Position numbers and translations under genes: made by a program. A DNA stretch of 64,000 nucleotides from Chitinivibrionales bacterium (GTDB lineage Bacteria > Fibrobacterota > Chitinivibrionia > Chitinivibrionales > FEN-1185), in NCBI GenBank assembly GCA_035516255.1, contig DATJAL010000047.1:25198-89197 (forward strand). Direction: 5' to 3'. The notes beneath the pieces are model-generated. The model was given only the letters and a program-made list of their open reading frames with translations. It was not told the DNA's origin and searched no databases. Below are positions 29,512 through 32,400 of this stretch, piece by piece; the first letter of the stretch is position 1, and each line of letters opens with the position of its first letter.

Positions 29512-32400
29512 CTATTTGATTTTCTTTCTTTTCGCCTTGTACTTCCGCTTGATCCGCACGCCCGCAAGAGGTTTTTGTCCGGACGATTTTTTCGGCTTTT
29601 TTTCCTGAGACGGCGCCGCCGGTTCTTTGGGGGAGGCGGTTTTCTTTTTGGCGCGTTCGACGGCCACCGTTTCTTCGGCCTCCTGGGTCTCGATGCTGCG
29701 TTCTATTTCCGCGATCCTCTTCGCCATGCGCTCGTTGTCCGGGTCTGCGGACAGGAGCCTGCGGTAGATCTGCAGCGCGAGCTGCGGCTGGCCCTGCTGG
29801 AAATAAATGTCGGCAAGCGTGGGCGTGAGCACATGGTCGGGGATGTCATATTCCTGGGACTTCGTCGCGCCGGGTTCCTTTTGCGTTTCCGCCTGAAGTT
29901 CCTCTTTGAAAATGTCACCGCCCGCGGCGGGCGTCTTTGCGGCGCGCACGGTCTCGTCTTTTTCGCTTTCGTCAATATTTGCAGGCGCCGCGGCCGGTTT
30001 CGGAAGGAACGGGTCCCTGCCCGAGGCAAGGATGGTCTCCTCCTCCGCAAGCATGGTCTCCTCCTCGGGCGGTATTATCTCCTCCTCCGCCGCCATGGTC
30101 TCCCCGCCGGCGTCCTCGTCCATGAGCACGGTTTTTTCCTCGGGCTCGCGTCCCATGTCGAGCGTGTCCACCTCCAGCACCGCTTCCTCTTCATCACCGG
30201 GAGCGGGCGGCATGGTCTTGTCCGTTTCAGCGTCCTTCGCCTTGGCGTTTTCCTCCGGACCGGGGCGAAACGCCTGGGTCACCGCATCGTCTTCCTTGTC
30301 AAGACCGGCCCCGGGCCCTGCGGTCGTCTCGTCGCGGCCCTTGGTGACGCTGTCGAGGAATATCTTGTCCAGCCGCTCAGCCACGTCGTCGCCCGACATG
30401 CCGGGAGACGCGTCTTCCTCTTCCATATCGTCAATGGCCGGCGCGGGCTCCTTGCCCATATCGCCGGTTTTTCCCCGAGACAGCTTTGCCCTCGGCGCGA
30501 TTATTGTTTCGGCTCCGCCTTCCAAATCCTCGTCGCCGACGATGATGGGACGGTCTGCGCCGGCAAGCGGATGCTTTGTTTCCTCCTCCGAGCGCGGCGT
30601 TTCAAGTTTTTCGGCCGGGATCACGTCGGTGCCGGCCGAGTCGTGCCCCGCCTCCTCCTCACCATCGCCAAGAATGGTTTCAAGCCGCTGCGCAACATCG
30701 TCGCCCGAAATTTCATGGCCGGCCGGCTCTGCGGCCGCCTTGTCCGCGTCCGGGACCTTGATCTCTTCGGTGGCGCTGCTCGCGCTCGAGGAGGACGCAA
30801 CGTCAAAAACAGGGGCTTCCTCGGTTTCAACCGCGGGCTTGCTTGACAGATCGGTGTCCTGTCCCAGCGGCTCGGGTGCGGGTGCGTCCTCAAACATCGC
30901 GTTGAGCCGCGAAGTGACGTCTTCGGCGGAGATTTCCGTGGCCTCCATGGGCCGCAACTCGTCGCGCTTGAGCTCCTGCGTCGGCGCGGTGAAAAGCGAC
31001 GTCTTCGGCTGGGTATCCTTTGCCGCTCCATCTATCTCCTCGGTTTCAAAGGCCTGCGTGAACTCGGCCTCGGGCCCAAGATCTTCGGGAGCCTCGGGTT
31101 TCCCCTGGCCGAACAGTTGCTCGAGACGGGAACTTATGTCGTTTGCGGAAACCACCCAGTCGTCTTTGGCGTCGGCGCGGGTCTGCGCCGACGTCTCAAT
31201 ATGGGTCATGCCGTGGTCAGCGCCGATGTCGACATGCTCGAACGTTTCCGGCCCCGGCTCGCCCGCAAGTGTTTCGGCCAGCGCATCATGCTCGGGCGAG
31301 GCCGCGAGTGTCTCTGCGGACTCCGAAGGTTCCGGCACCTGTACGGGTATTTCGGCGGGAGCATCGGCCTCCGCGGCAACCGCCGGGGCCCCGGTTTCAC
31401 CGAACAGGGAGTCCATGCGCGAGCTGATATCGTCGCCGGTGACATTCCCCTCGTGTTTGTCAACTGTTTCCAGGGTGATCTCCTTGACTTCCGCCGCCGG
31501 GGGTTCCGGCTCGGCGGAAACCGGCGGTGCCTCGGGCTCGCCGAACAGGGTGTCCAAACGCGAGCTGACGTCGTCGCCGGTGACCGCGCCCTCATGTTTG
31601 CCCGCAACCTCGGTCACGGGCTCCTCGGGTGCCTCCGCCGGTGCCGCAGGCGCCGGCGCCTCGGGTTCGCCGAACAGGGTGTCCATGCGCGAACTGATGT
31701 CATCGCCGGTGACGACCCCGCCCTGGGTCTCGGACGTCTCCATGCCGAGCTCAACGGCCTGTTCCGGCGCCGCGCCGAGCTGTGCGGCGTCGAACTGCTG
31801 CGTCTTGACGAGCATTTCTCCAAAGTCAACACTGTCCTGCTGCTGCGGCGCCTCGAGGGGAATGCGGTCCATCTGGATCGTCCGGTCCGCGTCGACGATG
31901 ACGTCCGACGGCGCCGAAACGCTGAATTCTTCCTCGGCAGCGGGCTGCGGCGCCCAACTGCCCTGGCCGATGATGTTCTGGATGTTGGTTTCGCCCGGCC
32001 CGCGGAAGGTCGCCGAAAGCTTGATGAGCGGCTTGTTGTCCGGGTCCATGCGCAGCAGCCACGCATACAAATCGCCCGCCTTCTCCCGTTCGCCCTGGGC
32101 GGCAAAGAGGTCGGCGATCAGCTTCACCGCGACCTGGTTGCGCCTGTCAAGCTGTGCGGCCCTGGTGAGCTCCGCGATCGCCTCCTGGTGCTTCTCCTGC
32201 TCAAGGTAGCACCGCCCGAGGATGACCCGGGCGGTCACGCTGTCCGGGTGGCTCTTGAGGCCCTCCTCGCATACGCTGATGGCCTGCTCGAACTCGCCGT
32301 TCTTGCGGTACCGGTCGGCAAGCCGCGAAAACACAAGGGACGAGGGGGATTGGCTCAGCTTGCTCTCGAGCGTCTTGATTGAGGCGTCTGATTTCGGCAT
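29512..32400 (-). CDS. Acidic repeat protein with N- and C-terminal TPR modules and a Lys-rich tail
   Basis: ATG 32400 is preceded by AAGGAGAG. TPR repeats occupy the first ~130 aa and again near the C-terminus (LADIYFQQGQPQLALQIYRRLLSADPDN). The ~700-aa D/E/P/A-rich centre carries seven G/S-x-D-D-[IV]-x-x-R-[LM]-[DEN]-x-[LIM]-[FL] motifs. Confidence 0.75.
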   Translation of the reverse strand: MPKSDASIKTLESKLSQSPSSLVFSRLADRYRKNGEFEQAISVCEEGLKSHPDSVTARVILGRCYLEQEKHQEAIAELTRAAQLDRRNQVAVKLIADLFAAQGEREKAGDLYAWLLRMDPDNKPLIKLSATFRGPGETNIQNIIGQGSWAPQPAAEEEFSVSAPSDVIVDADRTIQMDRIPLEAPQQQDSVDFGEMLVKTQQFDAAQLGAAPEQAVELGMETSETQGGVVTGDDISSRMDTLFGEPEAPAPAAPAEAPEEPVTEVAGKHEGAVTGDDVSSRLDTLFGEPEAPPVSAEPEPPAAEVKEITLETVDKHEGNVTGDDISSRMDSLFGETGAPAVAAEADAPAEIPVQVPEPSESAETLAASPEHDALAETLAGEPGPETFEHVDIGADHGMTHIETSAQTRADAKDDWVVSANDISSRLEQLFGQGKPEAPEDLGPEAEFTQAFETEEIDGAAKDTQPKTSLFTAPTQELKRDELRPMEATEISAEDVTSRLNAMFEDAPAPEPLGQDTDLSSKPAVETEEAPVFDVASSSSASSATEEIKVPDADKAAAEPAGHEISGDDVAQRLETILGDGEEEAGHDSAGTDVIPAEKLETPRSEEETKHPLAGADRPIIVGDEDLEGGAETIIAPRAKLSRGKTGDMGKEPAPAIDDMEEEDASPGMSGDDVAERLDKIFLDSVTKGRDETTAGPGAGLDKEDDAVTQAFRPGPEENAKAKDAETDKTMPPAPGDEEEAVLEVDTLDMGREPEEKTVLMDEDAGGETMAAEEEIIPPEEETMLAEEETILASGRDPFLPKPAAAPANIDESEKDETVRAAKTPAAGGDIFKEELQAETQKEPGATKSQEYDIPDHVLTPTLADIYFQQGQPQLALQIYRRLLSADPDNERMAKRIAEIERSIETQEAEETVAVERAKKKTASPKEPAAPSQEKKPKKSSGQKPLAGVRIKRKYKAKRKKIK
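30355..31715 (-). repeat. Intragenic in-frame motif repeats of the acidic TPR protein
   Basis: Near-identical DNA blocks CCGAACAGGGTGTCCA(T/A)(G/A)CGCGA(G/A)CTGA...TCGCCGGTGAC occur at about 31401, 31541 and 31671. Four more diverged copies extend down to about 30355. Confidence 0.7.

Follow-up and report, generated by a model that had tools for sequence, protein, structure and literature searches.

The window, i.e. the entire 64,000-nt stretch of DNA that was analysed, carries on its minus strand a gene (29512..32400) for a 962-aa protein, designated TPRrep here, in which TPR modules flank an acidic disordered region and a basic tail forms the C-terminus. The ORF starts with an ATG at 32400 and ends with a stop codon at 29512-29514, and its translation was identical to an NCBI protein from a metagenome-assembled genome (MAG) of a Chitinivibrionales bacterium. 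An upstream TTG at 32448 is an unlikely start, because M1 and the N-terminus aligned across the orthologues. A gene for RfaE domain II (heptose-1-phosphate adenylyltransferase; 32508..32999, minus strand), a conserved neighbour, was located 107 nt upstream. On the downstream side the same-strand run with small gaps that had been described previously was recovered. The gene of an M24 Xaa-Pro peptidase (Creatinase_N and Peptidase_M24; 28399..29493, minus strand) followed TPRrep after 18 nt, the gene of a PilT/PilU-family hexameric ATPase (27305..28402, minus strand) overlapped the M24 stop with its start by 4 nt, and after a gap of 6 nt the run was completed by a gene for a FecR-domain protein (26498..27298, minus strand; Pfam FecR) with an N-terminal hydrophobic signal or anchor. 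Directly after FecR, an intrinsic-terminator-like hairpin was found at 26442..26475 on the same strand, with a 15-bp stem, 9 G-C pairs and a T-rich tail. The window PilT scored 444 bits against TIGR01420 (cut-off 319). Its best relatives in the PDB were PilT of Thermus, Aquifex and Geobacter (343-297 bits), and a PilU scored 274 bits. Only T2SSE/AAA matches were obtained for this PilT in Pfam, with no extra domain that might serve as a receptor.

A Pfam scan of the whole TPRrep (E≤0.01) returned TPR families only, at about aa 12-130 and 861-900, and TPR_16, TPR_14, TPR_19 and TPR_2 exceeded their cut-offs. The TPR fold was supported by AlphaFold, which placed helices at aa 8-131 and 860-919, mostly with pLDDT above 90. 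The N-terminal TPR domain (aa 8-131; 32008..32379) comprised eight helices with pLDDT 96-98, and many of its surface residues were invariant in the orthologue alignment. In Foldseek it matched generic or consensus TPR proteins only, the top ones being a consensus TPR, OGT and MamA. The C-terminal unit with its long helix (aa 853-919; 29644..29844; pLDDT 88-97) is a single TPR by Pfam and contains the near-invariant block IPDHVLTPTLADIYFQQGQPxLAxQIYxRLLxxDPDN. The folded parts are four TPR repeats on the N-terminal side and a single one on the C-terminal side, flanking an acidic disordered chain of 700 aa. This central region (aa 149-850; 29851..31956) had a net charge of -122, a D+E content of 24%, low column conservation and, outside the motifs described below, a pLDDT of about 30-45. 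The basic tail (aa 921-962; 29515..29640) carries a net charge of +14 and a core, KPLAGVRIKKK, that was conserved among the orthologues. No LysM domain was detected in the whole protein by Pfam (E≤0.01), no membrane segment was found along its full length (maximum 19-residue Kyte-Doolittle mean of 0.55), and there was no signal peptide at the hydrophilic N-terminus. TPRrep was therefore regarded as cytoplasmic, like PilT. The outline given in the earlier note, i.e. TPR modules at both ends, an acidic centre of about 700 aa and a basic tail, with neither LysM nor a membrane segment, agreed with all of these data.

The acidic centre carries an array of a short motif. The pattern D[IV]xxR[LM]xx[LMI][FIL] matched TPRrep seven times, at aa 234, 277, 324, 421, 494, 568 and 672, and these matches were exactly the seven peptides listed earlier. 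When the central 710 aa were shuffled 20,000 times, a mean of 0.00065 and a maximum of one match were recorded. The 14-residue consensus was [VIM]-[ST]-G-[DES]-D-[IV]-x-x-R-[LMI]-[DE]-x-[LIM]-F. In a logo of 335 instances the D and R were invariant, with G at 96% and F at 98%. Copies 1 (aa 230-243, VTGDDISSRMDTLF; 31672..31713) and 2 (aa 273-286, VTGDDVSSRLDTLF; 31543..31584) are lineage-specific extra copies of canonical motif 1, the former being mostly gapped in the orthologues. Canonical motif 1 itself (VTGDDISSRMxxMF) corresponds to copy 3 (aa 320-333; 31402..31443), which AlphaFold modelled with a helix at aa 324-333. The remaining canonical motifs are represented by copy 4 (motif 2, VSGSDISSRIEQLFG, aa 417-430; 31111..31152; helix 422-429), copy 5 (motif 3, ISGEDIxSRLNEMF, aa 490-503; 30892..30933; helix 493-503, block pLDDT 69), copy 6 (motif 4, ISGDDVAxRLETIFEE, aa 564-577; 30670..30711; helix 568-577) and copy 7 (motif 5, MSGDDVVGRLDELFSDxL, aa 668-681; 30358..30399; helix 672-682, block pLDDT 73), all on the minus strand.

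In the full-length AlphaFold model (pTM 0.41), the five conserved copies appeared as isolated short helices with pLDDT 58-73 within a disordered chain whose linkers scored about 35, in line with the helical nature proposed previously. The motif is interpreted as an amphipathic helix of three turns that caps itself, with the I/V, L, L and F side chains on one face. In this reading the S/T and the D would make up a capping box and Φ(-4) would pair with I/V(+1) in a hydrophobic staple, and the C-cap is often Gly. A membrane-binding amphipathic helix was rejected, since every copy carries a net charge of -2 to -3.

In the orthologue alignment the motifs formed islands of 70-90% column identity, separated by linkers of 3-35%, and each of the five canonical positions held its own sequence flavour across the orthologues. 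Among 219 homologues, the number of copies per protein was most often 5, within a range of 2-10; the seven copies of TPRrep are the five canonical ones and the two extra copies of motif 1. Conserved islands in a non-conserved, predicted-disordered region, kept across orthologues, are what characterizes a short linear motif, and the motif was retained in about 219 homologues from three deeply diverged subgroups. The proposal of a short linear motif, rather than mere recent duplication, was therefore upheld.

It had also been stated that copies 1-3 are almost identical at the DNA level, spaced about 130-140 nt apart and recently duplicated. The spacing was right (141 and 129 nt). However, identity was no higher than 69-72% for the 127-nt units and 79-85% for the 66-nt motif cores, and about one third of the codons for identical residues differed synonymously. 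The near-identity of the DNA was therefore an overstatement, and the duplication event is not a very recent one. What stood of the duplication claim concerns the two extra copies of motif 1 alone, and even these are shared in kind with relatives that are only 53-56% identical. The 129-141-nt unit was picked up by a general repeat search and was not reported by Tandem Repeats Finder.

A motif-profile search of 1.84 billion representative proteins returned 175 proteins. Among these, 122 were new and were checked, and nearly all of them had the TPRrep architecture. Every family member whose source was named belonged to Fibrobacterota, to which the family is restricted; all genomes compared were uncultured MAGs. 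In two diverged subgroups, b and c, the motif was kept, with an N-terminal TPR domain only 25-30% identical to that of TPRrep. The basic tail differed by subgroup, being RRPRPGLKVPKRKK in subgroup b and missing in subgroup c. The C-terminal TPR module was found in Desulfuromonas and Syntrophus proteins as well. In a Desulfuromonas homologue of 288 aa both TPR modules lie about 20 aa apart, so that TPRrep could represent a split TPR domain with an inserted loop. Alternatively, its C-terminal unit could be a duplicated repeat, because the last repeat of the same homologue also aligned to the fourth N-terminal repeat of TPRrep. Literature searches for the TPRrep family or its motif retrieved nothing, and the labels currently in use are 'tetratricopeptide repeat protein' or the misleading 'FimV'.

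The gene neighbourhood was compared across 55 Fibrobacterota loci. The order TPR protein, M24 peptidase, PilT and FecR was kept in most of these genomes: M24 immediately followed the TPR gene in 54 of the 55, PilT occupied a position like that in the window in 48, and FecR was present downstream in at least 26. In four genomes pilT was absent from the locus, with the TPR gene and M24 kept. Subgroups b and c showed a different arrangement (accA, a small ORF, TPRrep, accB, PilT and accC), in which M24 was lost and PilT retained. The latter was orthologous to the window PilT (64-65% identical), and FecR followed accC in the one subgroup-c locus examined. Conservation of the gene order in relatives, which the earlier note had suggested to check, was observed in most of these genomes, and the association with pilT extended to the rearranged loci. 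As the motif and its linkage to pilT were both conserved, neither of the two computable outcomes that the note had named as counting against its interpretation, a motif lost in orthologues and a missing linkage with pilT, was obtained.

Based on the sequence data, it is tentatively proposed that TPRrep works in the cytoplasm as a soluble scaffold for multivalent docking that is associated with the PilT ATPase, which we regard as a plausible though by no means secure reading. A folded client would find putative multivalent docking sites in the motif helices, and the position of the scaffold in the cell would be set by the TPR units and possibly by the basic tail. The likeliest client would be the PilT-family ATPase encoded two genes downstream, or the machinery that PilT serves. 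TPRrep may thus concentrate or position the PilT motor as the acidic FimV/HubP hubs do, without an anchor in the membrane or peptidoglycan. Such a scaffold is supported by the tight gene packing that ends at the terminator, i.e. an operon-like run. A tethered AlphaFold prediction was performed with the window PilT fused to TPRrep aa 215-700, using an alignment of 113 PilT orthologues. In this model of a PilT monomer and a linker without alignment, PilT reached pLDDT 80-95, all motif copies stayed at 30-45 and no docking was seen; the monomeric PilT and the unaligned linker limit the power of this negative result. The four genomes with no pilT at the locus and the lack of a receptor-like extra domain in the window PilT also speak against this reading.

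Several other explanations were weighed against the docking scaffold. It is extremely improbable that the repeats merely arose from recent tandem duplication or low-complexity sequence and have no function of their own. Copies 1-3 do make up a tandem unit and the copy number does vary within the family, but five copies are positionally orthologous and were kept phylum-wide when the linkers were not, the extra copies held their amino-acid sequence despite the synonymous divergence of their codons, and the shuffled centre gave essentially no matches. A more serious view, although a rather unlikely one, is that the linkage to pilT is incidental and that TPRrep stems from an old housekeeping neighbourhood (aroQ, pepP/M24, efp, accB and accC). 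In that case, the protein would work with the M24 peptidase or another housekeeping partner and not with pili. M24 is indeed the most constant neighbour, TPRrep lies inside the accA/accB/accC cluster in subgroups b and c, and the four genomes lacking pilT at the locus fit as well. The TPR-to-M24 adjacency also reaches beyond the phylum: the locus order was TPR, roadblock, aroQ, M24, accB and accC in Desulfuromonas, and a mini C-TPR ORF followed by M24 and efp in Syntrophus, with neither the motif nor an adjacent pilT at these loci. Therefore, part of the synteny may be an inherited housekeeping order. However, the motif array occurs in Fibrobacterota only, where pilT joined the cluster. Subgroups b and c gave up M24 and kept PilT, the examined subgroup-c locus also keeping FecR, and an orthologous PilT has remained adjacent through at least two different rearrangements.

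It is also possible, if doubtful, that the motif helices dock on the TPR units of TPRrep itself, in cis or in trans, which would result in a network or condensate or in autoinhibition, with the clients bound elsewhere. Short helices and peptides are commonly accommodated in TPR grooves. In its core, ΦxxRΦxxΦ, the motif is similar to the ESCRT-III MIM1 helix, a ligand of the TPR-like MIT domain, and several stickers combined with two receptor units make a typical condensate layout. Moreover, the motifs scored higher in the full-length model, which contained the TPR units, than in the tethered construct, which lacked them; yet the two AlphaFold runs also differed in the linker alignment, and the pLDDT difference is therefore not attributable to the TPR units. 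Self-docking is further opposed by the conservation of both TPR modules in the motif-less Desulfuromonas and Syntrophus proteins, so that their conserved function does not require the motif. In addition, the N-terminal TPR domain has diverged strongly between the subgroups, whereas the motif has hardly changed.

In eukaryotes, disordered regions with conserved arrays of short linear motifs have been studied extensively, but in bacteria such arrays have rarely been defined. The TPRrep motif is sharply defined, phylum-wide and tied by gene order to the PilT motor. If its helices recruit PilT or pilus parts, they would show how a pilus motor is positioned in bacteria that have no FimV or HubP. 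In Fibrobacterota, type IV pili are the presumed means of attachment to cellulose and chitin (PMC4704652). If docking proves true, a compact peptide-and-receptor pair would be at hand, and if the partner is the protein's own TPR units, TPRrep becomes a candidate bacterial condensate scaffold. A bolder form of the proposal is that TPRrep is a new soluble hub, not homologous to FimV/HubP, whose five MIM1-like capped helices capture or regulate the PilT hexamer or else condense through its own TPRs; this is conceivable, though we consider it unlikely. If it is true, the motor of type IV pili would be organised in a new way, and TPRrep would rank among the clearest bacterial examples of a conserved multivalent array of short linear motifs.

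Among known systems, the closest in layout are FimV of Pseudomonas and HubP of Vibrio and Shewanella, to which TPRrep had been likened in the earlier note. In the cytoplasm these proteins have a long and strongly acidic region that is for the most part unstructured and that in HubP contains imperfect acidic repeats; their C-terminal TPR unit is believed to bind clients, and FimV is functionally linked to type IV pili (PMC12918733). TPRrep shares the acidic, largely unstructured region with predicted short helices and the C-terminal TPR, and the resemblance held for this layout only. FimV and HubP span the membrane once, carry a signal peptide and have a LysM domain in the periplasm; TPRrep has none of these features. 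The C-terminal TPR of TPRrep, unlike that of FimV, was not matched by the FimV C-terminal domain model TIGR03504, either in the whole protein (NCBIfam) or in the C-terminal 118 aa (E≤10). TPRrep in turn possesses a TPR domain of four repeats at its N-terminus, ends in a basic tail and is confined to Fibrobacterota. The repeats differ as well, being a sharply defined 14-residue helix in TPRrep and acidic units of about 46 residues in HubP. Consequently, it is most improbable that TPRrep belongs to the FimV/HubP/TspA family as a genuine, truncated member, even though three homologues are named 'pilus assembly protein FimV' by JGI and the acidic centre with its C-terminal TPR unit recalls the layout of that family (PMC12918733). 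The motif-profile search yielded the TPRrep architecture only and no proteins with LysM or a membrane segment.

At the level of the motif, the N-terminal LSQxEIDALL ('EIDAL') of FliM/FliY, a short docking helix for CheY-P and FlhG, shares with TPRrep an S-x-x-[DE] helix cap followed by I-x-x-Φ-L. However, it has Leu in place of the invariant Arg, lacks the terminal Φ-F and occurs as a single N-terminal copy. Identity with FliM EIDAL, the beta-clamp motif QLxLF or the FtsZ C-terminal peptide was dropped, because the invariant positions did not match. MIM1 of ESCRT-III has the consensus (D/E)xxLxxRLxxL(K/R). Its binding site lies between helices 2 and 3 of the MIT bundle, which is TPR-like (PMC7240154). 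Both MIM1 and the TPRrep motif are short amphipathic helices in acidic disorder with the core Φ-x-x-R-Φ-x-x-Φ, and a ring ATPase is found in both settings, the hexameric Vps4 for MIM1 and PilT at the TPRrep locus. The core spacing is thus present, but D is found at -1 and 0 instead of -3. Whereas MIM1 occurs once, at the C-terminus, and terminates in K/R, the 5-7 TPRrep copies are internal and terminate in F with acidic residues behind it; the invariant S/T-G-x-D cap belongs to the TPRrep motif only, and there is no homology between the two. No MIT domain was detected in the C-terminal unit (E≤10), in the whole TPRrep or in the neighbouring PilT. The MIM1 resemblance is taken as a lead only. 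The last comparison is with the C-terminal scaffold of RNase E in the degradosome, where folded partners are recruited to short conserved microdomains within a long stretch of disorder. TPRrep is likewise a bacterial protein with long disorder and short conserved segments. The RNase E scaffold is partly basic and arginine-rich, is attached to a catalytic domain and has no sequence relationship to TPRrep; its microdomains all differ and each has a different partner, whereas TPRrep repeats one and the same motif.

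The TPRrep gene was located on the minus strand of the window, with the ATG at 32400 and the stop codon at 29512-29514, and encoded a 962-aa protein composed of an N-terminal TPR unit, an acidic disordered region, a C-terminal TPR unit and a basic tail. An in-frame TTG upstream at 32448 was an improbable start, because the orthologues aligned to the TPRrep N-terminus from M1. Pfam matched TPR families only, in two regions of about aa 12-130 and aa 861-900. The region of aa 149-850 contained 24% D+E and carried a net charge of -122, and the last 42 residues had a net charge of +14. 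A membrane segment was not found in TPRrep, as the hydrophobicity of every sequence window was too low. The protein was identical to one NCBI MAG protein of a Chitinivibrionales bacterium, and about 75 homologues of the full architecture were found in Chitinivibrionia and Chitinispirillia. Foldseek and PDB sequence searches for TPRrep yielded generic TPR proteins only.

All seven motif peptides listed in the earlier note were found in TPRrep, at aa 234, 277, 324, 421, 494, 568 and 672. In 20,000 shuffles of the central region, the core pattern occurred 0.00065 times on average and once at most. The motif was present in nearly all of the about 75 full-architecture homologues, hence the possibility that it reflected tandem duplication only did not hold. 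A typical homologue contained five copies, and each position had its own conserved flavour: VTGDDISSRMxxMF (motif 1), VSGSDISSRIEQLFG (motif 2), ISGEDIxSRLNEMF (motif 3), ISGDDVAxRLETIFEE (motif 4) and MSGDDVVGRLDELFSDxL (motif 5). TPRrep carried these five canonical motifs and two extra copies of motif 1. When the orthologue columns were mapped onto TPRrep, conservation was 0.7-0.98 in the TPR units and 0.7-0.9 in the five canonical motifs, compared with 0.03-0.35 in the linkers between the copies. The logo of 335 motif instances was [VIM]-[ST]-G-[DES]-D-[IV]-x-x-R-[LMI]-[DE]-x-[LIM]-F-x-[ED], where D and R were invariant and F and G reached 98% and 96%, respectively. It was concluded, with good support, that the motifs constituted a conserved array of short linear motifs in a phylum-restricted, uncharacterised protein family.

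Two further features were observed in the same protein. A conserved island, IPxGDKxxExVNQGFYTMSGENA, followed motif 5 in the TPRrep orthologues and was degenerate in TPRrep itself (DKEDDAVTQAFRPGPEENA, aa about 705-720, about 30240-30290, minus strand). At aa about 753-795 (30015-30143, minus strand), about five tandem units of 21 nt encoded EEETxLA-type heptads, making up a second small repeat inside TPRrep, and were followed by the conserved island GRDPFLP.

The first three motif copies had been taken in the earlier note for a recent duplication. The tandem unit was recovered, the copies lying 141 and 129 nt apart; the recency of the duplication, however, was not upheld. The 127-nt repeat units were 69-72% identical and the 66-nt motif cores 79-85%, and among the 16-19 codons that specify identical residues, five or six showed synonymous differences. 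The closest TPRrep relatives (53-56% identity) likewise had motif 1 in three or four copies. Based on the divergence of the units, the synonymous differences and the expansion shared with these relatives, the expansion of motif 1 is lineage-specific and not recent, the silent sites having drifted while the amino-acid sequence was retained. Functionless duplication as the origin of the repeats was effectively excluded.

Further, a motif profile of 30 columns, built from 130 diverse instances, was searched against 1.84 billion representative proteins, and only 175 proteins were retrieved at E<=0.001. Nearly all of the 122 new proteins checked had the N-terminal TPR unit, an acidic region with 2-10 motifs and a C-terminal TPR of the TLADIYFQQG type. 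Three subgroups were distinguished: the Chitinivibrionia type, whose tail is RPLAGVRIKKK (a), proteins with the tail RRPRPGLKVPKRKK and an N-terminal TPR unit only 25-30% identical (b), and proteins of 600-700 aa that ended at the C-terminal TPR unit without a tail and whose sources named Fibrobacteria or Fibrobacterota MAGs (c). The motif was nearly constant across the three subgroups, and family members (n=219) had between 2 and 10 copies, most commonly 5. A protein of a named cultured Fibrobacter was not among the matches to the motif family.

The gene for an M24 Xaa-Pro peptidase began 18 nt downstream of TPRrep, and its stop overlapped by 4 nt with the gene of a PilT/PilU-family ATPase (TIGR01420, 444 bits at a cut-off of 319). 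A FecR-domain gene followed 6 nt downstream of the PilT gene and was itself followed by a strong terminator-like hairpin, and an RfaE-domain-II gene lay 107 nt upstream of TPRrep. Among 55 species-level Fibrobacterota genomes, M24 came next after the TPR gene in 54 and PilT next after M24 in 48, the seven exceptions being three contig ends and four real absences. FecR was detectable in at least 26 of the 55 genomes, with two additional examples. The best solved relatives of the window PilT were bona fide PilT proteins, and its orthologues within the class were 67-90% identical. The subgroup b and c genes were arranged as accA, small ORF, TPRrep, accB, PilT and accC, with FecR after accC at a subgroup-c locus. 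Over the full length, the PilT proteins of these subgroups shared 64-65% identity with the window PilT and were therefore regarded as the same orthologue. The linkage with pilT described in the earlier note was thus conserved. In these subgroups pilT lay between accB and accC (L059 4662-7630, L060/L061 9893-12832 and L062 7439-10392), and an acetyl-CoA carboxylase gene cluster is an unusual site for a pilus motor gene.

Outside the motif-bearing family, a Desulfuromonas MAG (L056 6016-14665) had the gene order pilQ, aroB, a 288-aa TPR protein, roadblock/LC7, aroQ, M24, accB and accC. The 288-aa protein contained both TPR modules without the acidic region or the motif; its gene adjoined a gene of the small-GTPase-regulator type, downstream of the pilus secretin. 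In a Syntrophus MAG (L058 2754-2945), a 64-aa ORF directly upstream of M24 and efp consisted only of the C-terminal TPR unit (TLADIYYQQG...DPLN) and a basic tail, so the C-terminal module also occurs as a stand-alone mini-protein. The TPR modules and the M24 adjacency predate the motif, and some of the gene order therefore derives from a housekeeping neighbourhood. Features specific to Fibrobacterota are the acidic region and its motif array, together with the addition of pilT and FecR. The N-terminal TPR domain also had distant homologues without the motif (P0076-P0109); those named by their sources came from Gemmatimonadota, Longimicrobiaceae and Archangium. In several of these homologues, the disordered regions contained conserved islands of another kind, FSFDxFF and, at the C-terminus, DDLxxFxxWLxGLKK. 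Proteins that combine TPRs with a disordered region and short motifs particular to each lineage may therefore form a wider class.

The gene order of subgroups b and c differed, yet the PilT orthologue was kept, and hence the TPR-PilT pairing outlasted at least two different rearrangements. Next to this stands the inherited M24 adjacency. A housekeeping role of TPRrep with M24, in which the pilT linkage would be incidental, was one of the two main rival readings and was considered unlikely. We proposed instead, tentatively and at somewhat less than even confidence, that TPRrep would act as a multivalent scaffold in the cytoplasm. Docking sites would be provided by its capped amphipathic helices, and the TPR units and basic tail would place the protein in the cell. 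The partner would be the co-encoded PilT-family ATPase, possibly also the FecR-domain envelope protein, and the role would be FimV- or HubP-like, assembled from different parts.

In each motif, S/T and D would make up a capping box of the helix, and a hydrophobic staple would be formed by I/V at N4 with the hydrophobic residue ahead of the cap. Gly, often directly after the motif F, would be a C-cap. I/V(+1), L(+5), L(+8) and F(+9) would share one helical face. In the AlphaFold model of TPRrep with 63 homologues, pLDDT exceeded 90 in both TPR units and was about 35 in the linkers. Isolated helices with pLDDT 58-73 were predicted for the five conserved copies, and the two extra copies of motif 1, gapped in the alignment, formed no helix. 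The motif helices are probably protein-docking sites. Their docking onto the TPR units of TPRrep itself, resulting in self-assembly or a condensate, was the other main rival reading and was regarded as unlikely. For the scaffold reading, PilT or its machinery was a possible but doubtful client. The window PilT was fused to aa 215-700, containing all seven copies, and modeled with 113 aligned PilT orthologues. The PilT part folded well (pLDDT 80-95), and in this model of a PilT monomer and a linker without alignment no motif docking was seen, every copy having pLDDT 30-45 and the linker only two faint helices. The predicted model thus lends no support to binding of a PilT monomer by the motif, and it would still be compatible with docking onto the hexamer or at an interface. 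A clean comparison with the full-length model is precluded, as the two differ both in the presence of the TPR units and in alignment support.

Elsewhere in the window, a second FecR-domain protein (21700-23319, plus strand; SLBB, FecR and LytR_cpsA_psr) was encoded after a 1041-aa Wzz/tyrosine-kinase-like protein (18608-21733) and before rmlD and rmlB; these genes form a cell-envelope polysaccharide cluster. A 492-aa protein (33335-34813, minus strand) had a weak match to a type IX secretion C-terminal sorting domain and a two-component-regulator-propeller repeat, consistent with an FCB-group organism. Four ORFs of 131, 144, 303 and 430 aa, within 24451-25351 (plus strand) and 36256-38528 (minus strand), lacked Pfam matches; of these, the genes of 303 and 430 aa were syntenic in the closest relatives (L001-L003).

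The motif core was similar to the ESCRT-III MIM1 helix in the pattern Φ-x-x-R-Φ-x-x-Φ and the acidic context. The ring ATPase Vps4 has a TPR-like MIT domain, in which the MIM1 binding site lies between helices 2 and 3 (PMC7240154). As a MIT domain was not detectable in TPRrep or the neighbouring PilT and the motif ends differ from those of MIM1, this likeness was taken as a lead on the binding mode only. FimV/HubP proteins combine a C-terminal TPR unit with a cytoplasmic region that is long, acidic and for the most part unstructured, and there is a link between FimV and type IV pili (PMC12918733). The resemblance to them suggested in the earlier note, which had already recognized that LysM and a TM segment were missing, held for this layout. 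However, it did not extend to any defining feature: TPRrep had neither a signal peptide nor a membrane segment, and both the LysM domain and the FimV C-terminal domain were absent. The label 'FimV' given by JGI to three TPRrep homologues was for this reason misleading, and true FimV membership was effectively excluded. TPRrep is another form of the acidic TPR hub idea, outside the FimV/HubP family.
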